DNA of 38,567 nucleotides from a virus (Duplodnaviria; Heunggongvirae; Uroviricota; Caudoviricetes), in the IMG/VR virus record IMGVR_UViG_2531839486_000019, positions 1-38,567 of that record. The stretch is one strand, 5' to 3'. Each line of letters opens with the position of its first letter. Positions within the stretch are counted from its first letter, which is position 1. Under the pieces are notes generated by a model. It ran no database searches. It was not told where the DNA came from and saw only the letters and a program-made list of their open reading frames with translations. Both the position numbers and the translations under genes were made by a program. Shown one piece after another: positions 18,765 through 32,497 of this stretch.

Positions 18765-19100
18765 TTACACGCCCAGTTCTTTACGCTTATCTGCGATCTT
18801 CTCGCGGAGCGTTTCGGCTTTAGCGTTATGGTGTGGCTTCTCGTTAAAGAGCAATTCGTACTCTTCACGGAGCTTATCCAGTTCACCATCATCTGACACA
18901 TCGTTGATGATTTTGGTGCTGGTTGCTGCCATAGACACCTTTCCTGCTACCTTTGCTTTTGCCTGTCTGGCTGCATCGTTAACAGGTTCCAGTGCGCTAC
19001 CAGGCTCACCTTCGTATTCGATTTCTGCCCCCTCCGGCCACAGAGTGTTATGGATATGAGAGAGGCGCAGAACGCGGTATCTTGGTTTCTCACCTGACAT
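18765..19100 (-). CDS. hypothetical virion-module protein
   Basis: ATG at 19098-19100 (MSGEKP...) with RBS GGTGA 6 nt upstream; the track start is GTG. Confidence 0.5.
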   Translation of the reverse strand: MSGEKPRYRVLRLSHIHNTLWPEGAEIEYEGEPGSALEPVNDAARQAKAKVAGKVSMAATSTKIINDVSDDGELDKLREEYELLFNEKPHHNAKAETLREKIADKRKELGV

Positions 19101-19110
19101 CGATATCACC

Positions 19111-19548
19111 TTAACCAGTTACTTTTGAGCGGATCGGATACGGCGTATTGGCATCAACATCAAGACTGATACCCGCAGTGAATTCGCCAGCCGTTAGTGG
19201 GCCAGTTGCGACGGAGTAGTTAACGCGCAGATATCGCTGAACACCGGCAGGCACCTTTGCAGAAACAACTCGTTTACCTGCTGTCAGGGCGGTCTTTGCC
19301 AGTGCGCCACTATCATAAATAGTGGTCCATGAGCTGTTATTCTCACTCGTCTGCAACTGGATGTTTACAGTTGCATCACCGCTTGCCGCGGCGGCTGTGT
19401 TAACCAGCGCCCAAAACTCAAGCGGGTAACCCACGCCGATATCACGACGTTTTCCGTCAATTGGACCGAGATCGATTACGTCAGTAGAAGCCGCGGTATT
19501 CGTAACCGCCTGAGCTTCGGAGAACATCAACAGTTTGTCGGTGATCAT
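19111..19548 (-). CDS. hypothetical structural protein (capsid decoration candidate)
   Basis: ATG 19546-19548 with RBS GGAGA; lies directly after the major capsid gene. Confidence 0.5.
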   Translation of the reverse strand: MITDKLLMFSEAQAVTNTAASTDVIDLGPIDGKRRDIGVGYPLEFWALVNTAAAASGDATVNIQLQTSENNSSWTTIYDSGALAKTALTAGKRVVSAKVPAGVQRYLRVNYSVATGPLTAGEFTAGISLDVDANTPYPIRSKVTG

Positions 19549-19599
19549 CTTCTTTCTCCATTAGTGGGTCTGTTACGACCCACAGGTTAATAACAGGCG

Positions 19600-20592
19600 T
19601 TACACCACGCGGGCTTCTGTTTCCAGAAGCGCATCAGTTTCACGGATTGGTACACCACGGAATGAAGTCCACCACTCGCCTTCTGTCTCTTTTACGCTGA
19701 TCGCCAGAGATGTTTTCTCCAGAGATTGCAGATCAAGAGCCTGGCCTACAGTGCGGTTCATGTAGAACACCGGGCGACCCATGCCACGATTTGGAATGCG
19801 ATGCAGTGCTTTAACCATCAACTTCGCAATATTTGCGGCAGAGGAAGGTTCTGAAAGATTGCTGACATCGATGTTTGCAATGCGAACAACATAACGCCAG
19901 TCACGCAGAGCAAGTCCGTTGTCCCATTTGTAATGGGTACGGTAGCCTTCGTACTTGCCGCCATTCGCATCTTCCAGTGTCACCTGGCCTTTATCTTCCA
20001 TCTGGATGCCAGCCTTCTGCCCTTTCGGGAAGATGCCATGCACGGTGTTTTCGCCCCACACCACTAACCAGATTGAGGTGTTATCTGTACCCGTGCCACC
20101 AGCATCAATGATGTTCTGAGCATTACCCGCAGACAGGCTGGAATAGCGGGAGGACAGTCCCATAAACTGCTGAGGGTTAACGCTGGAATCACCATAAAAC
20201 AGCGTCTGCGCCATCTGCTGATTCATCGCTTCAATAAATGCGCGGTCTTCAGACAGGCGGAATTCGGCGGTATTGCCGTTCAGATCAGCCAGTGACTTAT
20301 CGACTTCAGCATAGGTTTCCAGCATGCCAACGGAATCTGTTACCTGCACTGTGGTTGATTTGCTTGGCTGTACGCCATAGTTCAGCAAACGCCAGGTAGC
20401 TGAAGGTAAACCAGAACGAATGGTGGTTCGGTGTCCGGTAGGAAGGTTCCCTTCGACAAAAGGCATATCCTGAAGGATCGGGTTAGTTTGACCGAGAAGC
20501 TCGATAATCTTATCGACTTTCCCGTTTGGATCGACGCGCTTACCCCAGTCAGCCAGCGTTAGCGCAGTTAAGCCTTTAACAGCCATTGTCAT
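19600..20592 (-). CDS. major capsid protein (T7 gp10-like)
   Basis: 330 aa after the scaffold gene; RBS GAGAGG favours the start at Met3 (20584-20586). Confidence 0.8.
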   Translation of the reverse strand: MTMAVKGLTALTLADWGKRVDPNGKVDKIIELLGQTNPILQDMPFVEGNLPTGHRTTIRSGLPSATWRLLNYGVQPSKSTTVQVTDSVGMLETYAEVDKSLADLNGNTAEFRLSEDRAFIEAMNQQMAQTLFYGDSSVNPQQFMGLSSRYSSLSAGNAQNIIDAGGTGTDNTSIWLVVWGENTVHGIFPKGQKAGIQMEDKGQVTLEDANGGKYEGYRTHYKWDNGLALRDWRYVVRIANIDVSNLSEPSSAANIAKLMVKALHRIPNRGMGRPVFYMNRTVGQALDLQSLEKTSLAISVKETEGEWWTSFRGVPIRETDALLETEARVV

Positions 20593-20600
20593 TTCCTCTC

Positions 20601-21302
20601 TTATTTGCCATAGAGCACTTCGGCCGCACTACGCTGGCCTTCATTACCACCGGTGACCATGCCATCTTCAGACATCGCCTTTCCGATTTTCACGAACGTT
20701 TTGACCAGATCAGGGTGATTACCCAGCCCGGTGGTGTTCAGATATTCTTTGAGTTCAGGTGTCCCGAACTGGTCAAGCGCACGCTGTGCGGCGCTAAGGT
20801 TAGAAATCAACTTGTCGCCACCGATTTCTTTGTCAGCTTTTACATCAGCAGCCCACTGCTCGGTTGTTTTCTGCCAGGCTTCTGCCTGGCGCTGCTGCAC
20901 ACCTGCCAGAATCTTCGGATAAGCATCAACCAGCTTTTGCGCTTGCTCGTTGGTCAGGTTAAGTTCTCGCGCCACCGGCTCGAATTCCTTCAACGCTTCT
21001 GTATCCAGCTCTACGCCTTCGGCAGCCTGAAACTCGTACTTCTCAGGCGCACCCTCTGGTTTATCGCCGTCCTTTTTTTCATCCTGTTTATCGTTTTCAG
21101 GCTTTTTGTCATCAGCAGGTTTATCGCCATCAGCAACAGGTTGTGGCTTATCACCTTCCGGTTGTGATGGATCACCAACTGGAGCAGGGTTATCACCTGC
21201 AGGCGCTGACGGTTCTGACGCAGCCGGAGCTGCTCCACCATCGACTGGTTGCTCATTGCAAAGACGGCGATACAGCAAACGCTCAAATAAATTCATGATC
21301 AC
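20601..21302 (-). CDS. scaffolding protein
   Basis: acidic, Pro/Asp/Lys-rich N-terminal region then helical C-terminus; between portal and capsid genes. Confidence 0.7.
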   Translation of the reverse strand: MIMNLFERLLYRRLCNEQPVDGGAAPAASEPSAPAGDNPAPVGDPSQPEGDKPQPVADGDKPADDKKPENDKQDEKKDGDKPEGAPEKYEFQAAEGVELDTEALKEFEPVARELNLTNEQAQKLVDAYPKILAGVQQRQAEAWQKTTEQWAADVKADKEIGGDKLISNLSAAQRALDQFGTPELKEYLNTTGLGNHPDLVKTFVKIGKAMSEDGMVTGGNEGQRSAAEVLYGK

Positions 21303-21595
21303 TCCTGTTCACTGGCCTCTTTGGCCATCTTCAAATACTGTTCAGGGCAATGCGCCATAACGCGCTGAAACAGTTCCAGCGCCAGATTGCGTTGCCCCTC
21401 ATTAAATGCCATTGCCATAGCGTCCATCGGTGATATAGCGGAAAACACACGGCCTTTCTCCAGCACCGACCAGACAACGCGACGCCCCTGTTCACTGCTC
21501 ATGACAAAGCGAATGTCATCAATTTCACGCTGCGCCATGTCACGTTGCTTACGGGCGTTTTCTTCTTTCAGTTGATCGTCTTCGTAATCTGTCAT
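21299..21595 (-). CDS. hypothetical 98-aa protein between portal and scaffold genes
   Basis: ATG overlaps portal stop and its own stop overlaps the scaffold start. Confidence 0.5.
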   Translation of the reverse strand: MTDYEDDQLKEENARKQRDMAQREIDDIRFVMSSEQGRRVVWSVLEKGRVFSAISPMDAMAMAFNEGQRNLALELFQRVMAHCPEQYLKMAKEASEQE

Positions 21596-23271
21596 TGTGA
21601 TTGCCCACCCTGACCACTAACTGCATTCGCCATAGCTGACAAAACACTCGGATCCGAAGTTTTAGCTTCGCTTAGCGTCTTGGCACCCTGTGCCGCCGCC
21701 ATCCCCATCGCCATCATTTGTTGCTGCTGTTGTTGCTGTGCCCGTTGCTGGCGAGCCTGCTCAACCTGTTCCTGCGGAACAATGACGGTTGGAGACACTC
21801 CGGACATATCAGCGAATGCATCGATCGCCTGATCAACGTTGAGTTTGTCGAGAGCTTCTGGTTTCGCTTGCGCAAGTTGACCAATGAAGTTGACCGTAGA
21901 CGCCAGACTGGACAGGCCGATAGACTTCTGCGCCTGAGCCATGACGGAAATGTATTCGACCTTCAGGGGCATACCTTCCATCGCGTCAGGCGGTGGCGGC
22001 AGCATGTTTTTACGCACCATCATCGAGAAAGCGCGGTCAATGAGAGGATTAAGACATTCGTCGTTCAGACGCTCCAGAACCGGACCCAACATCAGAAGTT
22101 TTTCTTCTTTCATTTCGATCACCGCTTCAACAGGCATCGAGCGGGTATTGATGTTCTGCAACATCATGAACAGATCGACAAAGTAGGCGCTGTTAATGAT
22201 TTGACGAGTGTCCTGAATGTCTGCTACCAGATCTGCTGTACTGGGGTTAACCAGATAAGCAGGCCTGAAACCATCCTGACCAGTAATCTGATCGATATAC
22301 GTGATGTCGCCAGGAAGAAGGGAGGCGCGCTGATTCTTGAGGGAAGTCGGAGCAACCATCGGCGGATTGGTGGCTTTATCAATCAACTGCGACTTGCGCT
22401 TCTGGAGAAGCTGCAATGCCTTAACAGGTCCAAGCGCCAGCATACCCGGGCATGATGATCCATAAACATCTTCGCCGTTAACTTCCCAGCGCGGAGCCAT
22501 AATTGGAAACTCATCGAATCCGGACTCACGCAACAACTTGTCGTTATCGCCACCAACCTCGTAATAAACCGATTTGAATGGCTTGTTCTTGCTATCCAGC
22601 TTCGATGTATCGCGGTCAATGTTCGGGTAAACCGAATGCATCACTTCAATCCACTTCTCGTAGGTGCCGCTTTCCCACATGCTTTTTACGGATTCGCTGA
22701 CGTTATTTAGTCCGAATTCCTGAACAAGCTGACGAACAGTCATAGAGAACTTGCGAAAACAGGTGTCCACACTGCCACGAGGTGAGTTAGCCAGGTAGTA
22801 ACTTCCTATCGGGAATGGCATTGTACGAATGATGTCCTCGTCATCCTCCAGCACCGCCATTGCACCGGTGCTGTATGTGCCGAGGCTTCCGTATAACTGC
22901 GGCAGCGACTGATAGAGATTCGACTTATTGAACATATCGTTCATGCGGTTCTGCACTGCCTCAAGCCACAACTTAACAGGGCCATAATCCATCATTTCAG
23001 GATCTGGCGTAGCCAGGCGAAACCACGGACGCGCGGGGCTTGTGATGCCTGACATCATGCCGCTGGCGAGAGTGCGCGCCGCCATAGTCCCGGTCGAATC
23101 AATAATGCGTGTATTGCGTCGATCGTTACGGTTGACCTCAGAAGTCAGAAAGCGGGAACCACGCGGGTTGATGTAATCACTCAACTCGCGCCAGTGCGGC
23201 TCGAACGACTGACGCTCGCTTTCAAGTTGTGCGAACTGTTTGTTCAATCGCTCTTTAGTTGTTTCCGCCAT
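21592..23271 (-). CDS. portal (head-to-tail connector) protein, podovirus type
   Basis: 559 aa; ATG 23269-23271 with RBS GGAG 8 nt upstream; poly-Gln/Ala C-terminal tail; sits after the terminase genes. Confidence 0.85.
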   Translation of the reverse strand: MAETTKERLNKQFAQLESERQSFEPHWRELSDYINPRGSRFLTSEVNRNDRRNTRIIDSTGTMAARTLASGMMSGITSPARPWFRLATPDPEMMDYGPVKLWLEAVQNRMNDMFNKSNLYQSLPQLYGSLGTYSTGAMAVLEDDEDIIRTMPFPIGSYYLANSPRGSVDTCFRKFSMTVRQLVQEFGLNNVSESVKSMWESGTYEKWIEVMHSVYPNIDRDTSKLDSKNKPFKSVYYEVGGDNDKLLRESGFDEFPIMAPRWEVNGEDVYGSSCPGMLALGPVKALQLLQKRKSQLIDKATNPPMVAPTSLKNQRASLLPGDITYIDQITGQDGFRPAYLVNPSTADLVADIQDTRQIINSAYFVDLFMMLQNINTRSMPVEAVIEMKEEKLLMLGPVLERLNDECLNPLIDRAFSMMVRKNMLPPPPDAMEGMPLKVEYISVMAQAQKSIGLSSLASTVNFIGQLAQAKPEALDKLNVDQAIDAFADMSGVSPTVIVPQEQVEQARQQRAQQQQQQQMMAMGMAAAQGAKTLSEAKTSDPSVLSAMANAVSGQGGQSQ

Positions 23272-23285
23272 TTCAATGACTCCGG

Positions 23286-23492
23286 TTACTGACCAAGCAG
23301 CGTTTTACCGCTGGTATTAGCGGTTGATGTGTCGCCCTGAGAACCGGTAAGCAGCGTAGAACTACGACCAGCAGCAGCGCGACGGCGACGAGTTTCTTCG
23401 TCGCGGGCATCAACAACGGCGGCATCCTGCTCCTGTGGTGCTGCCTGAACTTCTGGTGTTGCAGGCACTGACGGTGAGCTACCCATGCACAT
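23286..23492 (-). CDS. hypothetical small acidic low-complexity protein upstream of portal
   Basis: ATG 23490-23492 with GGAG 8 nt upstream; low-complexity sequence, so weakly supported. Confidence 0.3.
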   Translation of the reverse strand: MCMGSSPSVPATPEVQAAPQEQDAAVVDARDEETRRRRAAAGRSSTLLTGSQGDTSTANTSGKTLLGQ

Positions 23493-23560
23493 ATCAATGA
23501 CTCCGTACGCAATTAAATTATTACCAATTTAACCACATATGATTTATTTATCGTAGATAG

Positions 23561-23597
23561 TTGACATTTAACGCACAAATTATTACCTTTCAGGTAA
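23561..23597 (+). promoter_or_regulatory. candidate plus-strand promoter with operator-like dyad driving the tRNA operon
   Basis: perfect -35 TTGACA (23561-23566); dyad TTACC-TTTCA-GGTAA (23583-23597) over the -10 region; exact -10 hexamer ambiguous. Confidence 0.4.
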
Positions 23598-23919
23598 GCA
23601 AAGGGTTCATTCCGGTTATTAACCTGACTGGCTTGTCGTTAAATTGAACAGGTGGAGTGAGCTTTTATTTTGAGCAGTACGGCGTATGGCACATGCGCCG
23701 ATAGCGGTCTGGATACGTTTAAGGGGCACCCTCCCTTGCTCGGGCAAACGAACCAGGTAGCCGGAATGTGCAAGTCGAGCGGTTTTATTCCGCGCACGGG
23801 GATTCACCATCCCGGCGATTCGGTGTGACACCTCGGAAGAGACGAGGGTACAACGATGAGAGCATTTATGGAGCCGCGACAAAGTGTGGCGCCTTAACAG
23901 GCTAAGTGCTCTCAGCGTT

Positions 23920-23996
23920 GTGGCATTAGCTCAGTTGGACAGAGCAACCGCCTTCTAAGCGGTTGGTCGCAGGTTCGAATCCTGCATGCCACGCCA
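23920..23996 (+). tRNA. tRNA-Arg (anticodon UCU), phage-encoded
   Basis: 77-nt cloverleaf: acceptor GTGGCAT/ATGCCAC, D-stem GCTC/GAGC, anticodon stem ACCGC/GCGGT with loop CTTCTAA, T-arm GCAGG-TTCGAAT-CCTGC, discriminator G, encoded CCA. Confidence 0.85.
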
Positions 23997-24039
23997 GAAT
24001 CACGCCTAAGGACCGTGATGCCAGAAGTTCCAGGTGCTT

Positions 24040-24081
24040 GGCGGTGATGGTTTCCCTTGAAGGACTATCACCGCCCTTTTT
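24040..24081 (+). terminator. rho-independent terminator downstream of the tRNA
   Basis: stem ggcggtgat (24040-24048) / atcaccgcc (24067-24075) followed by CTTTTT. Confidence 0.5.
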
Positions 24082-24159
24082 ACAGCAGGACGCCATTGCG
24101 ATGACTTCATGCTGTAAACCCGTACAGCCACGGAAGGCATAACTCATTGCTTCCAGTTC

Positions 24160-24183
24160 GCCCGGTTCGCCGGGCATTTTTTT
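24160..24183 (+). terminator. second terminator-like hairpin ending 12 nt before the 123-aa gene start (attenuator candidate)
   Basis: stem gcccgg / ccgggc with ttcg loop, then A + TTTTTTT (24177-24183); RBS AAGGTGAGA follows directly. Confidence 0.45.
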
Positions 24184-24194
24184 AAGGTGAGATT

Positions 24195-24566
24195 ATGAAC
24201 GACCAGCAAATCGAAAAAGAAATCGTTGAGAAAGGAAAAACGGCACCGCGCGTTACGCCAGACCATATCGAAGGCATTATTGCTCAGGAGGCATATTTCA
24301 CAGCAGAAGATGGTGCCTTTGGCAAAGCCATAAAAGCGAAACATACTGGCGGAGAGGTAAACTACCAGCCGCACGAATCACTTTCTCTGCTGACGTTCTG
24401 CGTCCTGGTACTGCGCAACGGCTTCACCGTCACCGGAGAGAGTGCCTGTGCAAGTCCGGAAAATTTTGATGCAGAAATTGGTCGGAAGATTGCCCGGCAG
24501 AATGCTGTAAACAAAATCTGGATGCTCGAAGGTTACTTGCTGAAGCAGAAGCTAAGCGAGCAATAA
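24195..24566 (+). CDS. hypothetical 123-aa protein (cargo gene co-oriented with the tRNA)
   Basis: ATG 24195 with RBS AAGGTGAG 5 nt upstream; TAA at 24564-24566; terminator downstream. Confidence 0.6.
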   Translation: MNDQQIEKEIVEKGKTAPRVTPDHIEGIIAQEAYFTAEDGAFGKAIKAKHTGGEVNYQPHESLSLLTFCVLVLRNGFTVTGESACASPENFDAEIGRKIARQNAVNKIWMLEGYLLKQKLSEQ

Positions 24567-24586
24567 CACCGTGACATGTCACAAAC

Positions 24587-24614
24587 AGCCAGCCGATGAG
24601 CTGGCTTTGTTTTA
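24587..24614 (+). terminator. rho-independent terminator of the plus-strand cargo gene
   Basis: stem agccagc / gctggct, loop cgatga, then TTGTTTTA. Confidence 0.6.
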
Positions 24615-24656
24615 TCCTCATCAGAGGATATCAACGACATTATCCCCACCAGCGGA

Positions 24657-26132
24657 TTAAGCATACGGGTCATAATCTGTGATGGCCTTGCCTTGCTGGT
24701 TCTGCTGCCCAGGAATTCGCAGACGCTTCGACACAGGGAAAGCAAACGTCAGCAGTAGCGCATCGCCTTTACCCGGCGAACGCCCAAGTCGCTCTTTGAT
24801 ATCTTCCTTCGGTTCGATAACGATTTTACCGTCCACTCGAACTTTATACTCTGCCGCCGACAGGTCGTCCGCTGTTTCCTGGTCATCCAGCATCCCGCCG
24901 AGCCTCAGCCATGTCTTACATGAGTTGAACATCTCCCCACGCTTGTTAAGCATCTGCGGGTCAGTGGACGCACCGCCGAACGGAACAAGTTGCCATGTAC
25001 GTCCCCAGCCATCACCGATTGACTTCAGACCAGTTCCGTAACCGAAGTCGATGAACACTGCGTCAGCCTGGTACTGGTCTTCAAAGTCAGCGATACGCTT
25101 CGCCATTATCAGATCGTCAGTGGTCTTGTTGCCAGTCCATAGCACCTTACTATGCAACCCCTGCCGCAGGTATATCACCGCGTCATCAACGCCTGAATAT
25201 GCCGGGTCAACACCGATTATCACCGGAGCATGTGCCACCTGCGCAGCGGTTACCACCCGTTTCATTGCCTCATCAGTAAGACCGGTAGGGATAAACTGCA
25301 ATTCAGATGCATCAGGGAATATGCCGCGCACACGGATTTTAACGAAGTCGCTGTCTTCCCCGTAGTCATCAACCCATTTCTGCAACTGCTGTTTGTTAGT
25401 ACCTTCCACCGTCCGGCTGTCTATCTGCGCACACTTCCAGCGGTGCTTGTATTTGCGGAAGCATTCACGGAATCGCCCGGTATTACGCGTCGGGTTTCCG
25501 AACGCCACCCAAATAATCTCAGTGTCTTCGTCCGTAAGCGCACCCTCAGCAACTTCCCACACCAGATCCGCAATGTTCGACGCTTCATCAAACACCACGA
25601 TGATGCGTTTGCGCTCGTTGTGTAGTCCCGCGAACGCCTCAGTGTTGTGCTCAGACCAGGGGATTGCGTCAGCTCGCCACCGCTTGTCGTGCCCAGGATC
25701 ATTGCTGTACATCGCGGTAGCGGTACAGGTAAACCAGTCTTTCGTGATAGCAAGGTTCGACCACTTGATAATTTCCGGCCAGGTCTTCGTTCGTAGCTGG
25801 TTGTCGGTGTTGGCGGTCACCACGACCTTACAATCCTCGCAAGTGGACATGCCCCAGTTGATCAGCATTGAGATGAATGCGGATTTACCAATACCGTGAC
25901 CAGAAGCGCGTGCCAGCATAAGCGGCTGATAACGCGTCTCTGGATTCTGCAGGTGATCACGTATCTCTCGGAACGCATCGGCCTGCCACTGACGTGGGCC
26001 GGTAGCATGTGCCAGTTCAGTCCCCTCTTCCCCCCACGGGAACGCATAGAGGGCATAGCCAAGCGGATCGTGAGTGAACCCTGCAATATCCTCGATTAAC
26101 TGCTCTTCAGGAGATAACGCTGTATCTGTCAC
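24657..26132 (-). CDS. terminase large subunit
   Basis: 491 aa with N-terminal ATPase (Walker A-like GHGIGKS) and C-terminal nuclease-like region; GTG start overlaps small-subunit stop (GTGA). Confidence 0.9.
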   Translation of the reverse strand: MTDTALSPEEQLIEDIAGFTHDPLGYALYAFPWGEEGTELAHATGPRQWQADAFREIRDHLQNPETRYQPLMLARASGHGIGKSAFISMLINWGMSTCEDCKVVVTANTDNQLRTKTWPEIIKWSNLAITKDWFTCTATAMYSNDPGHDKRWRADAIPWSEHNTEAFAGLHNERKRIIVVFDEASNIADLVWEVAEGALTDEDTEIIWVAFGNPTRNTGRFRECFRKYKHRWKCAQIDSRTVEGTNKQQLQKWVDDYGEDSDFVKIRVRGIFPDASELQFIPTGLTDEAMKRVVTAAQVAHAPVIIGVDPAYSGVDDAVIYLRQGLHSKVLWTGNKTTDDLIMAKRIADFEDQYQADAVFIDFGYGTGLKSIGDGWGRTWQLVPFGGASTDPQMLNKRGEMFNSCKTWLRLGGMLDDQETADDLSAAEYKVRVDGKIVIEPKEDIKERLGRSPGKGDALLLTFAFPVSKRLRIPGQQNQQGKAITDYDPYA

Positions 26133-26725
26133 TGATTACCATCCTGACGTTCTTTGAGTCGCTTCCTGGCTGCTGCTATGCGATCAGCAATTGTCACATT
26201 CACATTAACATCCAGACGTTCTTTGAACGCGTTGACATCAACATGCTTACCAATCAGCTCAAGGTTCTTCACCTTGTCCGGCCATTTGATTTTTTTGAGG
26301 ATTGTCTCTATCGAATCCTCGTTCATGTTCATGATGGTCGATGACAGATCAAAGCCGCTAAGCGTAGTGCGCCAGATTTTCGGCCACTCGCGGATTGGTT
26401 TAAGGCTCCCATCGTCGTTGAGGATGTCGATCACGTCCATCTGGTCGATCTCCACCAGGCGCATGAGAACGTAATCAGCACTGACGCGCATTCGTTTGTT
26501 GCGTTCCTCCATCAGCTCGGCAATCCGTTTCTGAATGCGTTCATCTCGCATCATGACACTGGCTTTAACTGCCGCTGTATTTGGGGAGAATCCTGCGTTA
26601 ATCGCTGCCTGAGTCTGGTTTTCAGGCGTTTTGATGTATGACTGGCAATAAGCCTCCTGCATTGCTGTTAGTGGCTTAAATTGCGTTGATTTGCGTTTAT
26701 AGGTTTTAGTTTCAGCAGGCATCAT
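26129..26725 (-). CDS. terminase small subunit
   Basis: start moved to ATG 26723-26725 (MMPAETK...); the upstream 26 track codons translate a tandem DNA repeat and are unlikely coding. Confidence 0.7.
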   Translation of the reverse strand: MMPAETKTYKRKSTQFKPLTAMQEAYCQSYIKTPENQTQAAINAGFSPNTAAVKASVMMRDERIQKRIAELMEERNKRMRVSADYVLMRLVEIDQMDVIDILNDDGSLKPIREWPKIWRTTLSGFDLSSTIMNMNEDSIETILKKIKWPDKVKNLELIGKHVDVNAFKERLDVNVNVTIADRIAAARKRLKERQDGNQ

Positions 26726-26732
26726 AACCACC

Positions 26733-26764
26733 GTGGTAATAGTTACCGTTGTGGTAATAGTACC
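26733..26764. repeat. tandem direct repeat GTGGTAATAG(T)TACC x2 immediately upstream of the terminase small gene
   Basis: copies at 26733-26747 and 26751-26764; each is itself a GGTAA...TTACC dyad. Confidence 0.6.
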
Positions 26765-26768
26765 ATGC

Positions 26769-26794
26769 AAAATAAAGCCGCCATAGTTGGCGGC
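26769..26794 (-). terminator. hairpin plus T-run (minus strand) just upstream of the terminase operon
   Basis: stem gccgcca / tggcggc with tagt loop; on the minus strand it is followed by TTTATTTT. Confidence 0.45.
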
Positions 26795-26843
26795 AGTATT
26801 CAAAACACATCAAATTCATCATGCATAATCTACTCGTGACATG

Positions 26844-27185
26844 TCACACTATTAATTTCGTTTCATGCCAGCCTTTAGTCACCCAGCATTGCGAGTCACC
26901 ATTACACGGGCATGAATTAACTGGAACTCTCTCGCCGCACTTACCGCAACGTTTTCTGCTGATCGATTTTATACGCCCGCGCACGCGTGCATCATCCTGG
27001 CGGATCAGTAACGCTATATACTCACCAAATTCGTAAGGCGCACGCCCGGGGCGACGCGTGGCACAGTTACGCTCCAGCATTTCAATTTCCTGAGCATCAA
27101 GCACAATCTCCAGCTTACGCACACCAGATGCAGCTTGTCTGGCTCTCTGAGCGGCTTTGCGCTCTGCTGCTGATTTAGCCATCAA
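26844..27185 (-). CDS. Cys-rich zinc-finger protein; candidate late-gene regulator (position of lambda Q)
   Basis: 113 aa; basic N-terminus and C-terminal cluster CGKCGERVPVNSCPCNGDSQC; last early gene before the terminases. Confidence 0.5.
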   Translation of the reverse strand: MMAKSAAERKAAQRARQAASGVRKLEIVLDAQEIEMLERNCATRRPGRAPYEFGEYIALLIRQDDARVRGRIKSISRKRCGKCGERVPVNSCPCNGDSQCWVTKGWHETKLIV

Positions 27186-27456
27186 TATTCACCTTTATCG
27201 CGTACACCTTTACCGGTTTATCGCCGAAGTGCAGATGTGTGATTGTCTTGATTTCATACCCGTCATACGGAACATCAATTCTGCGGCTGGAATCGTCGCG
27301 CTTCGGGGATCCCTTTGTGATAATCAGGCGGTCATACTCCCGGAACATAATTCGCTTATTCCAGTAGTCATTACACAGGCGATACTCTTCCGTTTTCTCT
27401 CCGCGAATCATGGCATCGAAGTATTCACCTTTGACAGCAAGTTGCAGGTTAGCCAT
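27175..27456 (-). CDS. hypothetical protein, possible ASCH/PUA-like fold
   Basis: ATG 27454-27456 (MANLQLAVKGEYFDAMIRGEKTEEYR...); overlaps upstream stop. Confidence 0.45.
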   Translation of the reverse strand: MANLQLAVKGEYFDAMIRGEKTEEYRLCNDYWNKRIMFREYDRLIITKGSPKRDDSSRRIDVPYDGYEIKTITHLHFGDKPVKVYAIKVNIDG

Positions 27457-27716
27457 TACCGCACCTCCAGTCTCCATACCGCCTGACCAATCCGGCTGGC
27501 ATAGGTATCTTTGGATACTGCTCCGTCTTTAGCCAGCTCCATAAGAATTTTGCGCAAATCTGCCGAACGCCATTCTTCATCAGGAAATTCCTTCTCCATT
27601 GCCAACCGCAGATTCCAGGTTGCTATCGTGAATGGATATTCCCCGCCGAGAGCTTTCTCTTGCAGGGCAGCACGGGAACGCATCACCTGCAAAACCTTCT
27701 CTTTTACATCCATCAT
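27456..27716 (-). CDS. hypothetical protein
   Basis: 86-aa ORF in the nin-like region; overlapping start/stop with neighbours. Confidence 0.45.
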   Translation of the reverse strand: MMDVKEKVLQVMRSRAALQEKALGGEYPFTIATWNLRLAMEKEFPDEEWRSADLRKILMELAKDGAVSKDTYASRIGQAVWRLEVR

Positions 27717-28114
27717 TTTGCCTCCTGCGGCGGTTCTGGTAGCGGCATCCAGTTAGTTACATTGCGGCTATGTGTTTCGAAAAATTCATCACCATTGCGG
27801 ACAATATCGAAAAACTCACCGTCTCGATGTTGCGCATATAGAACGAATACGCCATCACATAAAATAATTACGTGCTGACCATCATCTGGCATTCTCTCAC
27901 TACAGCTTATCCAACCATCCGGAGTTACCGGAGAGTTGCCCGACAGCTCGTTCAACTTGTAAGTTTGGCTTACAGGTTCGGCTTCCAGCGATGCCAGCGC
28001 AATCCGTGCCAGTTCTTCCGCTTCTTCTGCTGGCAGTACAACGTTGCTACCAGGTCCGTATGTTTCGCGCCACTGCTTGATTGTCAGCAGTCGCTCTTTG
28101 GTAATAGTGGTCAT
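27713..28114 (-). CDS. DUF551-like phage protein
   Basis: C-terminal WISCSERMP...HVIILCDG...TNWMPLPEPP pattern typical of DUF551. Confidence 0.65.
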   Translation of the reverse strand: MTTITKERLLTIKQWRETYGPGSNVVLPAEEAEELARIALASLEAEPVSQTYKLNELSGNSPVTPDGWISCSERMPDDGQHVIILCDGVFVLYAQHRDGEFFDIVRNGDEFFETHSRNVTNWMPLPEPPQEAK

Positions 28115-28116
28115 AG

Positions 28117-28308
28117 CTATTTCACCTTAATCTCAACATTTCGCAGCTTTAGCTCTACTGGCAGGTCTGACTTTCCTGTTAACGCTAATGCGAGATTTTC
28201 TGGAGTAATGAGAGCAGTTATTGTTTTCCCCATCGCCAGACGAATAATCAGTCGTATCTCGCGATCGTCACATGCTCCTGGTCGAACAATTGATATTTGT
28301 CCGTTCAT
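28117..28308 (-). CDS. hypothetical small protein
   Basis: ATG 28306-28308 with RBS AGGAGA 5 nt upstream; the longer track ORF overlaps the Ea22-like gene by 120 nt. Confidence 0.45.
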   Translation of the reverse strand: MNGQISIVRPGACDDREIRLIIRLAMGKTITALITPENLALALTGKSDLPVELKLRNVEIKVK

Positions 28309-28309
28309 C

Positions 28310-29131
28310 TCACTCTCCTTTGATGCGAATGCCAGCGGCGCGGATAGATTTCCATTGTTCCCACATTCGGTTGAAGTCTGTGCCTGATAAGGTTGCGTTA
28401 CGGTATCCGGTTTCGGTGCGCAATCCTTCAAGTGTCGATTTGGAAATACAAATTGAATGCATTACCCATGATTCAAACAAGTCACGCTCCCGAGCTTCGC
28501 AACTTTGTTTACTCATCTCTTCGATGCATTGTTTAGCTTCTAAATCAGCAATTCTGTCAACCACGGCATCAACGGCATCAGAAAAGTCGAACCAGTTACT
28601 CCACTCCGGCCTATCACCGGTTGCTGCAAAGTACATATCAGCTAAAGCAGACTCAGCATGGTCACGCTCGTTAATGAGTTGCTCTTCGCTTTTCTCCAGT
28701 TCAGCAATACGCTTACTTCCATCCGAGATAACACCTTCGTAATACTCGCGCTGCTCGTTGAGTTTTGATTTTGTCTCCTCAAGCTCAACACGCAGCTTCC
28801 CTACCGTTAGCGCAATATCCTCGTTCTCCTGGTCGCGGCGTTTGATGTATTGCTGGTTTCTTTCCCGTTCATCCAGCAGCGCCAGCACGGTAGCCGGATT
28901 GGCTGCGGCGATGAATTCAGCATTGGCCTGCTGTTCCATTTGGAAATCTTCATCGAAACCGCTTTCTGGATGCGCTCCTTCAATTCTGCAAATGGGAATA
29001 TATCCAGCAGCCTCGCGATGAATTAGTGCATCATCACCATCAAATCGGCCCTCTCCATATTCGAGCGACCACACACCACACGTTGCTTTTTCTGCCTTGG
29101 CACGCAGTGCCTGATAGTCAATCTTGCTCAT
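28310..29131 (-). CDS. Ead/Ea22-like protein
   Basis: N-terminus MSKIDYQALRAKAEKATCGVW and coiled-coil middle typical of lambdoid Ea22-like proteins. Confidence 0.7.
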   Translation of the reverse strand: MSKIDYQALRAKAEKATCGVWSLEYGEGRFDGDDALIHREAAGYIPICRIEGAHPESGFDEDFQMEQQANAEFIAAANPATVLALLDERERNQQYIKRRDQENEDIALTVGKLRVELEETKSKLNEQREYYEGVISDGSKRIAELEKSEEQLINERDHAESALADMYFAATGDRPEWSNWFDFSDAVDAVVDRIADLEAKQCIEEMSKQSCEARERDLFESWVMHSICISKSTLEGLRTETGYRNATLSGTDFNRMWEQWKSIRAAGIRIKGE

Positions 29132-29132
29132 G

Positions 29133-29432
29133 TCACATCACCCTGAATCCGTTGCATTTACGTAAAAAATCGCAGATATAGCCCTTCATTTTGTCGTGCC
29201 AATCTCGATCATTCCCATTGCACCAACCATCAGGTGGAGTCCAGTTTTCTATCAGAGCAGCCATTTTCTTTGCTTTCGCCGGAGTAGCTGTTGCGGTATC
29301 GCAGTAATGACGAGTGTCGATCAACGTATCCATACCATCGATATCAAGTACGCAAAACCATGTGTGATTCGGCATTTCAACAGATGGTATTTGTTGCCCA
29401 CGTCGACGTTTATCAATAAGACATACAGTCAC
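29133..29432 (-). CDS. hypothetical protein
   Basis: 99-aa ORF; overlaps upstream stop (ATGA). Confidence 0.45.
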   Translation of the reverse strand: MTVCLIDKRRRGQQIPSVEMPNHTWFCVLDIDGMDTLIDTRHYCDTATATPAKAKKMAALIENWTPPDGWCNGNDRDWHDKMKGYICDFLRKCNGFRVM

Positions 29433-30007
29433 TGGTTGCCTCCTTTGCGAAGCTGTTCAGCAATACTTACGCATATCTCTGCGCCTCTAATCAGCCCCGG
29501 AACGTTCTTGTTTGGCCCAACTTCACCATCAACAAAATCAATCATCGCGTTACGAGCCATATCCACGCCCTGCGCCCGTACTTCAGCCAGGAAAGCGTCG
29601 GTGGCTGGGGTGTCTGATTGCAGAGACTTTGCGCGATAGTCATTCCACCCCCTTGCATACATGGGATTAACTTGCACTCCATCTTTTACGCAATATGCCT
29701 GCCCTCCACGGTTGATAACCTTGATTTCGTCCATAGCGCCAGACTTCAGCCCCGCATTCTCCGCCGCCAGCGCCGAAAACTTCTCGTGTGCCAACTTAAC
29801 AGCCGCATCAGCCTGCTTAATTGACTCAATCGCTTTCTGCTGGTCTTCGGCCAGCTCATTAGCACGCACCAGTTGCACTTCCAGTTGCGTTGCCAAATCG
29901 CTGATCAGATTTGCCACACTGCGCATATCAACGGCACCACATTCTGCTTTCAGTTCCGAAGCCATCTCATGCCCGGCGGAAACTAACCCTTTGATATTAC
30001 TTTCCAT
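29429..30007 (-). CDS. hypothetical protein
   Basis: 192-aa ORF in the nin-like region. Confidence 0.5.
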   Translation of the reverse strand: MESNIKGLVSAGHEMASELKAECGAVDMRSVANLISDLATQLEVQLVRANELAEDQQKAIESIKQADAAVKLAHEKFSALAAENAGLKSGAMDEIKVINRGGQAYCVKDGVQVNPMYARGWNDYRAKSLQSDTPATDAFLAEVRAQGVDMARNAMIDFVDGEVGPNKNVPGLIRGAEICVSIAEQLRKGGNQ

Positions 30008-30068
30008 CTTTACCCTCGCTTATCCACATAACTTATTGATTACATTGATAACTAAAAAGATCGTCGAT

Positions 30069-30416
30069 TCAGAACTCTTCGATGTTCCAGCCGCCACCTG
30101 CTTTCTTTGGTTTAACCGTTACCCCGATGATTCGGAACGGATACTGATCTGCGGCTACTTTGGTTTTCACCCTGGCGTCGTCGGTCCAGAATCCCCCTTT
30201 CACTTCGTGCAGTTCCATCTCTCCGGTGGCGAGCATCACAGCGAAATCGGGCGTATAGAACGTGTTGTCAGCTAACCGCAGCTTGATACCCTCGAATCGA
30301 TACCAGGCGATTTCCCCTGCACGTTTACGCAGCTCAAGGTGCTGGCAATACGCAGATTCTGTTTTGTTCATCTGATCTGTTTTGAGTCGACCAAGAGCCT
30401 GTATCTGTTTTCTCAT
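30069..30416 (-). CDS. putative PD-(D/E)xK-type nuclease (small resolvase-like protein)
   Basis: YTPDF ... ELHEVKG motif spacing consistent with PD-(D/E)xK; ATG 30414-30416 with GAGGT SD lying inside dyad 30420-30434. Confidence 0.5.
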   Translation of the reverse strand: MRKQIQALGRLKTDQMNKTESAYCQHLELRKRAGEIAWYRFEGIKLRLADNTFYTPDFAVMLATGEMELHEVKGGFWTDDARVKTKVAADQYPFRIIGVTVKPKKAGGGWNIEEF

Positions 30417-30419
30417 GAT

Positions 30420-30496
30420 TTACCTCTGAGGTAATTAAAAACCACATAAGACACGAAATCAATAGATTTTAGAATATTTTATTACCTAACAGGTAA
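30420..30496 (+). promoter_or_regulatory. regulatory module between the P-like gene and nin genes: two operator-like dyads flanking AACCACATA
   Basis: TTACC-TCTGA-GGTAA (30420-30434); AACCACATA (30440-30448); TTACC-TAACA-GGTAA (30482-30496). Confidence 0.45.
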
Positions 30497-30533
30497 TTGT
30501 CGAGGCGTAAAAAAATGCGCTATCGCGCTGGTA

Positions 30534-31334
30534 TTACTTGATAAATCCTGCCGCCTTTCCTCGCCTGTATTCCTCCATCAGCCACTGCGCCGGTGTTATT
30601 CCACCAAGGGTGGCGGCGTTAGGCATGCACCCGAAACTTCGCCCTGGTGGATGGTAAACGTCTCTCCCTGTGTCCGGAGGTGTACTCATGGGTTCTGGCT
30701 TTGCCTGTATGCTGATCACCGGATCGGGTATCTGCTGTCCGGAAGCCACCTTTTTCGCCCAATCATCGAGCAGCCTGCGCGCGTGTTTCTCAACCTCAAT
30801 CTCGCTAAGCTGGCGCTGATACATTGCACGGCGGGTATCACATACGACCCAGTACATAACCGGATGTCGCCACGGGAATCTTTCGGGACCACCAGGATAT
30901 AAACTTTTTTCCTTGCTGTACCGGTTAAACTCCGCCATCACATCGTCAATGGTGACGCCAAGAACCATCTTGCTGTCTTTACACCACTTGATGAATTGCC
31001 CAGGCGACGGCCAGAACGGAGATTCACTGGCGCGGGCGTGGCGCATACCAGCAGAAACCTGTTCACGGGTTCGGATCCCCCCTTCGGCAAACGCAGCAAT
31101 CCACTGCTGTTTTGCAGCAACTTCCTGCTCTGGCGTCTTCAGGTTGGTTACCACTGCCGCCGGAAACAGTTGTTTCAGCTGTTTGAAAAGGGCATCAACA
31201 AGCCTCTCTGCTGACATGTTCACCACGTTATCATTGTTGGTGTACTGATGCTCATAACCTGACATGCGAGAAAGGGCTTCTCCGTCACGGTTTTGTATCG
31301 CGGTAAAAACGTTGTTCACAAGAAATCCTCCCAT
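30534..31334 (-). CDS. replication protein P-like (lambda P family helicase loader)
   Basis: QQWIAAFAEGGIRTREQVSAGMRHARASESPFWPSPGQFIKWCKD closely matches remembered lambda P region RQWVLAFRENGITTMEQVNAGMRVARRQNRPFLPSPGQFVAWCRE. Confidence 0.8.
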   Translation of the reverse strand: MGGFLVNNVFTAIQNRDGEALSRMSGYEHQYTNNDNVVNMSAERLVDALFKQLKQLFPAAVVTNLKTPEQEVAAKQQWIAAFAEGGIRTREQVSAGMRHARASESPFWPSPGQFIKWCKDSKMVLGVTIDDVMAEFNRYSKEKSLYPGGPERFPWRHPVMYWVVCDTRRAMYQRQLSEIEVEKHARRLLDDWAKKVASGQQIPDPVISIQAKPEPMSTPPDTGRDVYHPPGRSFGCMPNAATLGGITPAQWLMEEYRRGKAAGFIK

Positions 31335-32131
31335 GCTTCAGGGCTGTTCCAGTGCGGAACGTTGTTATCAGGTAATGTTGATTGCTTCTGTCTGCTAATC
31401 TGCAGCCTCCTTGCCAGCTTCTGCTCCCACTGTGCCTGATGGTATGCCTTACCCTCAGCCATCCAGTAAATTCTGAACTCTGCAAGTTCCTGTGCCGTTG
31501 GCAGACTGTCCAGGTAGATCCCCTGCAATGAGCTTTTCCGAAGAAAGTCATCTGATGGCTGCCATTGTTCATGCATGACAAATTTGCCTAATTGCCCTGG
31601 CCCACCAGGAGGAACAAAGTTATTCATCACGGCGTTGTTTGCGCCGGGGTCATGAGGCACAGAATCCCCGCTTTTTGTCCTGCTCTCCCTCTCTTGGTTA
31701 AATGACTGGTTATATGACTGGTTCTGGATCCCGTTTTTGGGATCATTCAACATCCCGTTTTTGGGATCATTCAACATCCCGTTTTTGGGTATATTCCCGT
31801 TTTCGGGTATATTCCCGTTTTCTGGTTCATTGCCCCCCTCCCGGTTGCCTTTAATGTTCCCGTTTTTGGTTATATTAAGAGAGAAAACCCGCACTCTTTT
31901 TGTCGCTCCCTTTCTATCTCCGGTATCTGAAATAAGCCCCATTTTCATGAGCGATATAAGCCCGGCCTGCACGGTTTTTTTATTCAGGCAAGTGTCTTTA
32001 ACGAGTCGTTCTATGCTGGGGTAGCAGAGGTTATATTCATCGGCTCTGTCAGCCATCGAGAGCAGTATGAGCTTTAATGATGAGCTGCCTGGATCTGTCT
32101 CCCAGGCCCAATCTGTTGCATGTCTGCTCAT
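31316..32131 (-). CDS. replication initiator (lambda O-like) with origin iterons inside the gene
   Basis: N-terminal HTH-like domain, central peptide repeats (NGNIPENGNIPKNGMLNDPKNGMLNDP) encoded by DNA iterons, followed by the P-like gene. Confidence 0.7.
   Translation of the reverse strand: MSRHATDWAWETDPGSSSLKLILLSMADRADEYNLCYPSIERLVKDTCLNKKTVQAGLISLMKMGLISDTGDRKGATKRVRVFSLNITKNGNIKGNREGGNEPENGNIPENGNIPKNGMLNDPKNGMLNDPKNGIQNQSYNQSFNQERESRTKSGDSVPHDPGANNAVMNNFVPPGGPGQLGKFVMHEQWQPSDDFLRKSSLQGIYLDSLPTAQELAEFRIYWMAEGKAYHQAQWEQKLARRLQISRQKQSTLPDNNVPHWNSPEAWEDFL
31703..31890. repeat. putative origin of replication: iteron array plus AT-rich tract
   Basis: ATGACTGGTT x2 (31703-31724); GGATCATTCAACATCCCGTTTTTG x2 (31741-31788) with partial copy at 31727-31740; GGTATATTCCCGTTTTC x2 (31789-31825); CCCGTTTT core six times; AT-rich 31871-31890. 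Confidence 0.65.
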
Positions 32132-32146
32132 GATTAATCTCCGCTA

Positions 32147-32347
32147 TCAGCTTGAATGTTGTGGGGGGGAATTAATCATGATCTGCTTAATCTCTGCCCT
32201 GATGCGACGGTTTGATTCCATGGTGCACTCAACACAGTGTCCGTTGTAAACCCAGCGTTCACTGTCATGTCCGTGCTTACATGGTTTTCCGGTGTAGTAG
32301 CGTTTAAGTCCGCGCTTTGCGGCATCAATACGTGTAATGATTTCCAT
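32147..32347 (-). CDS. small zinc-ribbon protein (position of lambda cII; function unknown)
   Basis: ATG 32345-32347 (MEIITRIDAAKRGLKRYYTGKPCKHGHDSERWVYNGHCVEC); my reading of the displayed bases at 32402-32410 does not reproduce the first three residues of the track ORF, so the longer start is not used. Confidence 0.4.
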   Translation of the reverse strand: MEIITRIDAAKRGLKRYYTGKPCKHGHDSERWVYNGHCVECTMESNRRIRAEIKQIMINSPPQHSS

Positions 32348-32426
32348 GGTAAGCCCTGTTATTAGTATTGGGATTACGGTTATTTTGTGCTGACACAAAA
32401 AAAAGATCAACCAAATTTGGTTTTTT

Positions 32427-32441
32427 ATTACCTTTGAGGTG
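32427..32441. promoter_or_regulatory. operator-like dyad between the Cro-like gene and the next early gene
   Basis: TTACC-TTTGA-GGTGA; preceded by perfect palindrome AACCAAATTTGGTT. Confidence 0.4.
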
Positions 32442-32497
32442 AGAATAGATATGAAAAGACCGCCGGATGACGGTCTACAGAGGGTTGTGGCTGGATA

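Follow-up and report, generated by a model that had tools for sequence, protein, structure and literature searches.

A conserved pseudoknotted RNA heads a predicted repressor-controlled operon in phiV10/epsilon15-like prophages

We analyzed a stretch of viral DNA of 38,567 nucleotides (nt) (IMG/VR virus record IMGVR_UViG_2531839486_000019, positions 1 to 38,567; referred to here in its entirety as the window), which to judge from its sequence is a phiV10/epsilon15-like (Uetakevirus) prophage. Positions 23561-24606 of the window appear to form a repressor-controlled RNA operon that is conserved across phiV10/epsilon15-like phages. In order, this block comprises an operator-overlapped promoter, a structured RNA that we call the core, a long hairpin (hairpin H), a tRNA-Arg(UCU) gene, a terminator (T1), a hairpin region that ends in a second terminator (T2), a Shine-Dalgarno (SD) sequence and ATG that lead into a cargo gene, and a third terminator (T3). 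An earlier note on this DNA had treated the ~360 nt from promoter to tRNA as an empty leader; we find instead that they hold a conserved structured RNA, the core, which also occurs without the tRNA in other phages. Comparative evidence points to the core as a real, apparently undescribed, and widespread family of pseudoknotted plus-strand RNAs. This RNA is strongly conserved and supported by covariation, yet unannotated, and the interest of the block lies there and not in the tRNA. The core stands in the early regulatory region of medically relevant phages, namely, Stx2 converting phages, P1-like plasmid prophages, and O-antigen-converting Uetakevirus phages.

The core and its parts are as follows:
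23679-23849, plus strand: core structured RNA, ~170 to 175 nt, defined by covariation and a covariance model
23680-23700, plus strand: helix P1
23708-23757, plus strand: helix P2, with a variable tip
23756-23774, plus strand: invariant stretch GGUAGCCGGAAUGUGCAAG
23779-23793, plus strand: helix P3, a variable hairpin visible by eye
23799-23802 paired with 23810-23813, plus strand: helix P4
23805-23808 paired with 23822-23825, plus strand: pseudoknot CACC/GGUG
23831-23835 paired with 23843-23847, plus strand: helix P5, with the loop GAAGAGA

Covariation was tested in a MAFFT alignment that had not been fitted to any structure, using 43 sequences less than 90% identical to one another. The alignment supports four helices and an H-type pseudoknot. 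Across the core helices, 95.5% of cells are paired, compared with 28 to 52% when the partners are slid by 1 to 3 columns; 13 of the 27 pairs show changes on both sides, and the observed covariation score was reached in none of 500 shuffles. The pseudoknot itself covaries, with CG in 39 sequences and AU in 4. The strand is given by U-G pairs that hardly vary: the RNA is read from the plus strand, like the tRNA. A covariance model was derived from this alignment; it hits the window once, at 23679-23854, with 145.6 bits. RNAalifold offered a long-range GCACAU/AUGUGC pairing in place of P1; both of its strands are near-invariant and carry no covariation evidence, whereas P1 does covary (AU in 23 sequences and GC in 20), and we therefore did not adopt the long-range pairing for the main fold.

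Known families do not account for this RNA. In Rfam searches at E values up to 10 with the block, the leader of phage cdtI, and the leader of Klebsiella phage SopranoGao, the core had no match, and only the tRNA and chance matches were returned; at gathering thresholds, the tRNA was the only match in the whole window. A literature search that included the invariant sequence, put-like elements, the P1 ban operon, and the carrier phages returned no description of the core RNA.

The conserved stretch might in principle be a small protein gene or a site that acts as DNA (an operator, a pac site, or a recombination site). Short open reading frames (ORFs) do overlap it (23670-23828, plus strand, 52 amino acids; 23619-23882, minus strand, 87 amino acids), and some records annotate hypothetical ORFs over the core, such as mEp390_036 and one in Tyrion. 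No ORF is conserved across classes, however; length differences in the variable hairpins are not multiples of three; pairing is kept through changes on both sides; and the U-G pairs are strand specific. We therefore judged the ORFs over the leader spurious, covariation and pairing pointing to RNA, and consider a coding or DNA-level explanation highly improbable.

The core is distributed far beyond Uetakevirus. BLAST searches with 23530-23922 returned ~80% identical and mostly unannotated DNA in unrelated phages, both lambdoid (cdtI, mEp460, mEp390, Ayreon, and Stx2c and Stx2a converting phages) and other (P1, P7, D6, SJ46, Klebsiella phage SopranoGao, and a phage isolated on Stenotrophomonas). 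Matches to the core are present in 1,843 of 5,426 complete Escherichia coli genomes, about one-third. An exact search of IMG/VR for the invariant 19-mer GGTAGCCGGAATGTGCAAG yielded at least 119 loci, which reduce to 44 sequences less than 90% identical, while a loose, gapped 16-base pattern scan of genome contigs gave 120 loci, 6 of them genuine and all of these in Enterobacteriaceae. Among 125 core loci, a tRNA-Arg(tct) lies ~165 to 230 nt downstream of the 19-mer in 34 and a tRNA-Ile2(cat) ends just upstream in 20, but 71 have no called tRNA within 1.5 kb. Because the core is found independently of a tRNA, it is not a pre-tRNA leader.

These counts bear directly on the plainest view of the block, in which a phage tRNA gene and a moron share the site and the ~360-nt leader is passive pre-tRNA sequence that hitchhikes with the tRNA. 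Public records annotate the block in this way, and the tRNA is certainly there. The hairpin and tRNA that follow the core are:
23851-23919, plus strand: hairpin H, CAACGAUGAGAGCAUU...AGUGCUCUCAGCGUUG, a long-stemmed structure whose insert varies and whose end falls at the first tRNA base
23920-23996, plus strand: tRNA-Arg, anticodon UCU, CCA encoded (ARAGORN; Rfam RF00005; annotated in relatives)

The earlier note had predicted the tRNA-Arg at 23920-23996, and both predictors bear this out: ARAGORN calls a tRNA-Arg with anticodon tct (position 35) as the sole tRNA of the window, and Rfam RF00005 matches over the full length of the model with 73.3 bits against a gathering score of 29. The gene ends in ...GCCACGCCA, with CCA encoded. 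The note had also proposed that this tRNA supplies rare arginine codons. We compared 42 window ORFs with 41 host coding sequences beside the equivalent prophage of E. coli VR50, a small sample from a related strain. AGA is used 6.66 times per 1,000 codons in the window and 0.97 times in the host sample (~7-fold enrichment; Fisher P = 3e-15), and AGG is used 3.94 and 0.28 times, respectively (~14-fold; P = 3e-12); together they make up 18% of arginine codons in the prophage and 2% in host genes. These codons are concentrated in tail/injection, tailspike, and replication genes and in an AT-rich cargo ORF (3205-4215; GC content, 0.375), and they are almost missing from the capsid, portal, terminase, and Gp49 genes, so that the tailspike and AT-rich cargo genes named in the note are indeed among the rich ones. 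The tRNA-Arg(UCU) thus fits the heavy use of AGA and AGG by the prophage, and a role in decoding them is predicted. Phage-encoded tRNA-Arg(UCU) genes in Stx phages and other Uetakevirus members have the same anticodon and the same rare-codon rationale. The window tRNA is genuine but routine; compared with those other genes it is ordinary, apart from its setting behind a structured leader RNA and hairpin H and under operator control.

Although the tRNA and its match to codon usage are real, a passive leader is a very unlikely account of the sequence that precedes it. It leaves unexplained the 71 loci with no called tRNA, spread over unrelated phage types, as well as the compensatory covariation and invariant segments among copies less than 90% identical; and a moron is defined by a promoter of its own, which the cargo gene does not have.

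The block is likewise no one-off insertion. The same layout, antisense between terL and gp3/portal, is present in SPN1S and SPN9TCW (Salmonella), Tyrion (Enterobacter), and many IMG/VR prophages, and Uetakevirus phages with the block comprise phiV10, SPN1S/SPN9TCW, Tyrion, ZX5, and many prophages. The block is 95.5% identical to that of phage phiV10 and 99.4% identical to E. coli chromosomal prophages. RefSeq E. coli genomes annotate a tRNA-Arg and a "Gp49 family protein" in it. The tRNA block is therefore a genus-wide Uetakevirus feature that public annotation already holds, and that part of the picture was known.

We next consider where the core lies relative to promoters and genes. In Uetakevirus, it starts ~35 nt (e.g., at locus L003) to ~250 nt after the operator promoter. 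In lambdoid carriers, it comes directly after the cI-type repressor gene and starts at ~+42 to +46 from an operator-bearing PL promoter, with T1 and then early-left genes downstream. Phage cdtI illustrates the order: the cI stop codon, a terminator, TTGACA-16-CATAAT with a palindromic operator, ~46 nt, the core, hairpin H, an RNA of ~115 nt, and T1, with the first ORF ~600 nt from the start. The same PL plan recurs in a second lambdoid immunity type (L010), mEp390, Stx2a_1447, and the Stenotrophomonas-isolated phage. One lambdoid prophage (L023) carries two tandem cores (3993-4153 and 4800-4958 on the minus strand of the locus), ~800 nt apart.

Two further carriers are organized differently. 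In SopranoGao, the locus (L254, 2400-3220) follows the lysis cassette near the genome end and consists of a promoter, the core, and three units spaced by hairpin H; the last of these is recognized by Rfam as a tRNA only marginally (29.7 bits; gathering score, 29), and we read the locus, from its sequence, as a core-led array of non-coding, tRNA-like RNAs. In P1, the core lies 14 nt after trnI within the C1-controlled ban operon, ~90 nt upstream of ban. In epsilon15 (L006, 2778-2881), the covariance model matches no more than a 5' half of the core, P1 with part of P2. What lies behind T1 in the window adjoins this half immediately, and the tRNA and T1 are gone. Apparently one deletion took out all of the core beyond that half together with hairpin H, the tRNA, and T1, so that the element is hidden in the type phage of the group.

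Repressor control of the block is predicted from the features at its 5' end, together with the repressor gene:
23561-23589, plus strand: candidate sigma-70 promoter (own scan, 9 of 12 matches)
23583-23597, no strand assigned: operator dyad TTACC-N5-GGTAA, TTACCTTTCAGGTAA, overlapping the -10 and the likely transcription start
23598-23678, plus strand: variable 5' leader (upstream-region alignment)
32883-33467: helix-turn-helix (HTH) repressor gene (Pfam)

The promoter has a -35 TTGACA at 23561-23566, a 17-nt spacer, and a weak -10, TACCTT, at 23584-23589; a consensus promoter scanner scored it below threshold. In an upstream-region alignment, the -35 hexamer, its spacing, and the dyad are conserved in 15 Uetakevirus relatives. 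Seven perfect TTACC-N5-GGTAA copies occur in the 38.6-kb window (23583, 26743, 30420, 30482, 32813, 33526, and 33588), against ~0.04 expected by chance. Dyads at 32765, 32796, and 32813 (cluster 32765-32827) lie directly upstream of the HTH repressor gene, in an interval that, by comparison with the VR50 prophage, separates the repressor from a small cro-like gene; those at 33526 and 33588 lie directly downstream of it, before the recombination genes. This layout is as expected for OR and OL, and the epsilon15 record annotates a "repressor" site at the place homologous to the 23583 dyad. We therefore take TTACC-N5-GGTAA to be the prophage operator on sequence grounds, which means that the unit is probably repressed in the lysogen and transcribed early after derepression. 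A moron expressed in the lysogen is probably not the right picture, since the -10 of the promoter is overlapped by the prophage operator.

Perfect or near-perfect dyads are also found at 26725-26757, 30420-30496, 32765-32827, and 33526-33602. The 30420-30496 pair falls within the early-right operon, between a lambda-P-like gene and a DUF1064 gene; the 26725-26757 pair lies shortly before the point where terS probably starts in reality, which suggests that the predicted 224-amino-acid terS ORF is too long at its N terminus. Together, the sites suggest that several prophage promoters may be under P1-style direct repressor control. A second candidate promoter in the leader of the block (TTGAAC-16-TATTTT, 23644-23671) was set aside, being not conserved in relatives. 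The variable leader also holds GTCGTTAAAT...GGAGTGAGCTTTT, which resembles one half, the 3' one, of an H-type hairpin (by comparison with those of L010); relatives have the hairpin in full.

Behind the tRNA, the block is built around terminators and an exchangeable gene:
24040-24081 (stem-loop 24040-24075), plus strand: terminator T1, a 14-bp stem GGCGGUGAUGG...CUAUCACCGCC followed by CUUUUU (terminator scan)
24085-24183, plus strand: inter-terminator stretch with two hairpins, ending in T2 (terminator scan)
24160-24175, with U7 at 24177-24183, plus strand: terminator T2, GCCCGG-UUCG-CCGGGC (terminator scan; absent from the earlier note)
24184-24191, plus strand: SD AAGGTGAG, followed by ATG at 24195 (conserved junction)
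24195-24566, plus strand: cargo ORF of 123 amino acids (Pfam PF13876, Phage_gp49_66)
24587-24606, no strand assigned: terminator T3, found in a plus-strand terminator scan, between the convergent cargo gene and terL

Much of this part had been anticipated. The tRNA, the TTGACA promoter with its dyad, the terminator after the tRNA, and the 123-amino-acid gene claimed in the earlier note were all found where it had put them, and T2 is an addition. Crude terminator finders were noisy and missed T1, which has a large loop and a short U-tract; a motif search recovered it. By that search, at least 29 of 44 non-redundant relatives, among them Uetakevirus phages and lambdoid phages of two immunity types, have a homologue (GGCGGU...ACCGCC-CUUUU) whose upper stem covaries. 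T2, with its GC stem, UUCG loop, and U7 tract, looks like a strong terminator. The stretch between the terminators is kept in epsilon15-type relatives, where the T2 stem shows a compensatory change (GCCCAC/GUGGGC).

The 123-amino-acid protein belongs to the N4 Gp49/Sf6 gp66 family (PF13876; E = 8.6e-35, 119.5 bits against a cutoff of 27, profile positions 1 to 82 of 82); it falls in PHROG 322, a family label that carries no function, and RefSeq names it "Gp49 family protein." The module 23450-24183 and the Gp49 gene have separate relatives, the gene being shared with Stx2a phages and mEpX1. The junction T2-UUUUUUU-AAGGTGAG-N3-6-ATG is identical before at least five unrelated cargo ORFs in relatives, among them Gp49, a 142-amino-acid family, a 138-amino-acid membrane protein, and a Tad2-like protein (PF11195). 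Only 11 nt, which carry the SD, separate the U-tract of T2 from the cargo ATG, and the gene sits 14 nt behind the terminator; a scan found no promoter between T1 and T2. By sequence, then, the Gp49 gene is swappable cargo without its own promoter, fused behind a conserved terminator-SD-ATG junction. The earlier note was right that the gene and a terminator of its own (T3) are present, but the gene is not an independent one: it lacks a promoter and occupies an exchange slot behind T2. The block resembles morons in offering a variable accessory gene on the opposite strand, between packaging and head genes and ending in a terminator. Morons, however, have their own promoter, whereas the cargo here has none, is fused to an SD-ATG 14 nt after T2, and depends on an operator-controlled operon. 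Because it has no promoter and lies behind both T1 and T2, its expression requires terminator readthrough.

How this readthrough might arise leads to our reading of the core. We tentatively favor, with less than even confidence and on the strength of sequence comparison, a cis-acting leader RNA that makes the transcribing polymerase resistant to termination. We favor it because the core is promoter-proximal and 5'-most in four of five contexts, because it always precedes terminators and co-oriented promoterless genes, because it occupies the nutL/putL position in lambdoid phages without a detectable N, and because a protein antiterminator is not detectable. The operon would be off in the lysogen, and transcription would begin directly after derepression. 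Under this proposal, the nascent core would fold and act on its own RNA polymerase, either directly or with host Nus-type factors. The polymerase would then become resistant to intrinsic termination, Rho-dependent termination, or both, and would carry on through the untranslated RNA section into the genes that lie beyond T1 and T2. RNase P at the 5' end of the tRNA, and possibly RNase III in hairpin H, would release the RNAs, and only polymerases that pass both T1 and T2 could express the cargo. The block as a whole is thus probably silent in the lysogen and would yield an early transcript after derepression.

Searches for a protein partner are consistent with an RNA-only mechanism. We found no N- or Q-type Pfam domains in core-neighboring genes or in the early genes of the window, and no N-family Pfam domain in the first downstream ORFs of lambdoid carriers, where a very divergent N could escape detection. 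The closest functional precedent is HK022, a lambdoid phage without N in which antitermination is carried out by put RNA only (PMC9378689); put RNA is ~70 nt long and forms two stem-loops in a V shape with a short triplex (PMC9378689). Like put, the core of the lambdoid carriers is a nascent structured RNA just after the early PL promoter of N-less phages, with terminators and early genes downstream and no dedicated phage protein apparent. It does not share the architecture of put, being ~170 nt long with five helices and an H-type pseudoknot, and it differs further in having a PL-side copy only, in occurring outside lambdoid phages, and in that its role in antitermination is hypothetical. Put-type RNAs suppress terminators in cis with no need of phage proteins, and for this they depend on the beta' zinc-binding domain. 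The core covariance model had no match in HK022 stretches 19000-29000 and 27500-32500, which should include PL and PR, and HK022 was not among the best 60 of 92 records in the leader BLAST.

The core can also be compared with lambda nut sites and rrn leaders. It lies at the nutL position, between PL and the early-left genes, and P5 recalls boxB as a 5-bp hairpin with a purine-rich loop (GAAGAGA); this loop, however, has 7 nt and is not a GNRA-like pentaloop, so that P5 does not have the form of a nut-site boxB. UGCUCU-like strings recall boxA (CGCUCUUA-like and single-stranded) but sit in a paired arm of hairpin H. The nut system needs its cognate N, and Pfam shows no N homologue near the core. 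Like the core, the rrn leader precedes untranslated RNAs (here a tRNA or tRNA-like RNA) spaced by long stems; the large pseudoknotted fold of the core has no counterpart in nut or rrn leaders. By analogy, we would tentatively place the core beside HK022 put RNA or the rrn boxA leader in function, a parallel held at somewhat under even confidence, while in structure it is unrelated to either.

Several observations weigh against this reading. A role in readthrough is hypothetical, and our case for it, again held at less than even confidence, is drawn from position and sequence. Only a PL-side copy of the core is present, with no PR-side copy among 64 loci, unlike the putL and putR pair of HK022. 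In P1, the terminator of the dicF-like region precedes the core, and between the core and ban there is none. L064 has only 8 codons of its cargo gene left, yet it still carries the core. T1 travels with the core in one module and could be the 3' end of a discrete non-coding RNA gene; long-stem terminators of the T1 type are reported to resist processive antitermination (PMC10325885), and few strong intrinsic terminators beyond T1 were found in the early-left operons scanned. The -10 of the block promoter is weak and its transcription start is a predicted one. Finally, the likely processing signals that flank the core, the tRNA and hairpin H, fit an excised stable RNA equally well.

This last alternative, an excised and stable RNA that is made early and acts in trans by binding a conserved host protein or RNA, seems to us doubtful but is the main rival. 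RNase P, cutting at the neighboring tRNA or tRNA-like RNA, and a cleavage within hairpin H would free the core, and T1 would serve as its terminator; the RNA might act in host takeover, in anti-defence, or in translational control via CU-rich loops, with the downstream genes expressed by leaky readthrough. Excision is plausible given the neighbors of the core, tRNA-Ile2 in P1 and, in other carriers, hairpin H with a tRNA or tRNA-like RNA. There is precedent in the P1 c4 and P4 CI RNAs, which RNase P cuts from early leaders. T1 is conserved with the core across phage types, and the short U-tract of most copies (4 to 5 U) suggests partial termination; the invariant 19-nt stretch and the restriction of the core to phages of Enterobacterales would fit a conserved host target. 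The tandem cores of L023, the retention of the core in L064 without a functional cargo gene, the absence of a terminator after the core in P1, and the Tad2-like anti-defence domains in neighboring cargo can all be counted in favor as well. An RNA that acts in trans, however, need not be 5'-most, as the core is in Uetakevirus, two lambdoid immunity types, and SopranoGao; no target was identified; and the expression of genes 14 nt behind T2 is left unexplained.

The comparison with P1/P7 c4 and P4 CI RNAs can be taken further. These too are small structured RNAs of temperate phages, set in early leaders under repressor control and freed by processing of the tRNA type, and P1 itself carries the core. 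The core is twice the size of C4-family RNAs, though, and the Rfam C4 model had no match at E values up to 10 in the window leader or the cdtI leader. Since phages that differ in immunity type share its sequence, the core is unlikely to be an antisense regulator of phage-specific targets.

In a third reading, the core would be a riboswitch-like or factor-binding sensor. Polymerases would pass T1 and T2 depending on a signal from a metabolite, an ion, a tRNA, or a protein, and early accessory-gene expression would in this way be tuned to the state of the host. Its build is typical of an aptamer, with a multi-helix junction, a pseudoknot, invariant junction nucleotides, and variable peripheral hairpins, and terminators do lie downstream. 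The distance and sequence between core and terminator vary freely, however, which makes this reading less likely: a whole tRNA or an RNA of ~115 nt intervenes, and there is no overlapping expression platform. P1 again has no terminator after the core, and no Rfam riboswitch family matches. We regard such a sensor, and with it any tuning to host state, as improbable.

If instead, as we tentatively favor, the core acts in cis on RNA polymerase, it would explain early-left expression in N-less lambdoid phages and would provide a second natural model of RNA-mediated antitermination beside HK022 put. Going further, the core might represent a second class of RNA-only processive antiterminator, structurally unrelated to put, or else an anti-Rho leader, that drives early operons; we consider this stronger claim unlikely as matters stand. 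Its users would then be N-less lambdoid phages (including Stx2a and Stx2c), P1-like phages, Uetakevirus phages, and a Klebsiella podophage, an assignment that we hold with equally low confidence, and the early operons so driven would carry tRNAs, tRNA-like RNAs, and anti-defence or accessory cargo, which is again doubtful. On the antiterminator reading, its place in "empty" intergenic DNA would be the reason why the core escaped notice. Should it act in trans, it would be a widespread early phage effector aimed at a host target. Either way, T2-SD-ATG is a conserved "landing pad" for swapped accessory or anti-defence genes and is useful for cargo discovery and prophage annotation.

Tad2-like genes (Thoeris anti-defence 2, PF11195) occur directly downstream of the core in two unrelated contexts, as a Uetakevirus cargo gene and in a P1-like plasmid prophage (core-downstream loci: L089 and L100, cargo at +439 to +735; and L039, L062, L098, and L107, first ORF after the core). 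This hints that core-led early operons may be anti-defence hubs.

Hairpin H has 17 closing pairs in the window (-33.9 kcal/mol). In most relatives, its closing stem pairs CAAC.GAGAGCAUU with AGUGCUCUC..GUUG; the stem shows compensatory variants, and the inserts are ~25 to 140 nt long. Directly behind the hairpin there is in every case an RNA beginning GUGG..., either tRNA-Arg or a tRNA-like "X" RNA. Hairpin H is likely a processing or spacer hairpin. In relatives without tRNA-Arg, the slot after hairpin H holds an RNA of ~95 to 150 nt that begins GUGGUGAAU (or GUGGUAAU) and ends CCACCACAAC; examples are L064 (+176 to +272 from the 19-mer), L099, L005 (2743-2860), and L254 (2692-2790 and 2925-3050). 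The GUGGUGAAU...CCACCACAAC ends give a closing helix that resembles an acceptor stem, and neither ARAGORN at default settings nor Rfam calls these RNAs tRNA. They may be a second undescribed family of tRNA-like RNAs. Some hairpin H inserts (L003, L009, L095, and L099) contain T-arm-like segments (GGUUCGAUUCC or GGUUCAAUUCC), and the spacer hairpins may derive from, or embed, tRNA fragments.

The P2 tip (23708-23757) and the T1 loop (24040-24075) both show the pyrimidine motif YCCUU, and in SPN9TCW-type phages (L003 type) they have an identical 13-mer, UUCCCUUGAUGCU, in common. The motif resembles the 3' part of the anti-SD and is complementary to GGAA in the invariant segment of the core. We rejected the P2 tip and T1 loop as a covarying pair, as they show no covariation across lineages. 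The stretch between T1 and T2 (24085-24183) looks like the 3' part of an Hfq-type small RNA, with two hairpins and a canonical terminator. In Rfam, it bears a weak, sub-threshold resemblance to RyhB (E = 2.3); this resemblance is driven by the terminator, and a RyhB identity was rejected.

The genes around the block all lie on the minus strand:
21592-23271, minus strand: portal gene (Pfam, E = 1.6e-187)
23286-23492, minus strand: gene of 68 amino acids, between the block and the portal gene
24657-26132, minus strand: terL, flanking the block
26129-26803, minus strand: gene for the second terminase subunit (terS), flanking the block

The earlier note had placed the block on the strand opposite the late operon, between the large terminase and portal genes, and the minus-strand positions of terL and the portal gene agree with this. 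In the phiV10 record, the tRNA is left unannotated, and the 83-amino-acid hypothetical ORF phiV10p04 (L001, 3477-3728, corresponding to window positions 23926-24177 on the minus strand) is annotated over the tRNA-Arg gene and T1 in antisense; this ORF is almost certainly spurious. The hairpin homologous to T3 is annotated in phiV10 as a rho-independent terminator on the opposite strand.

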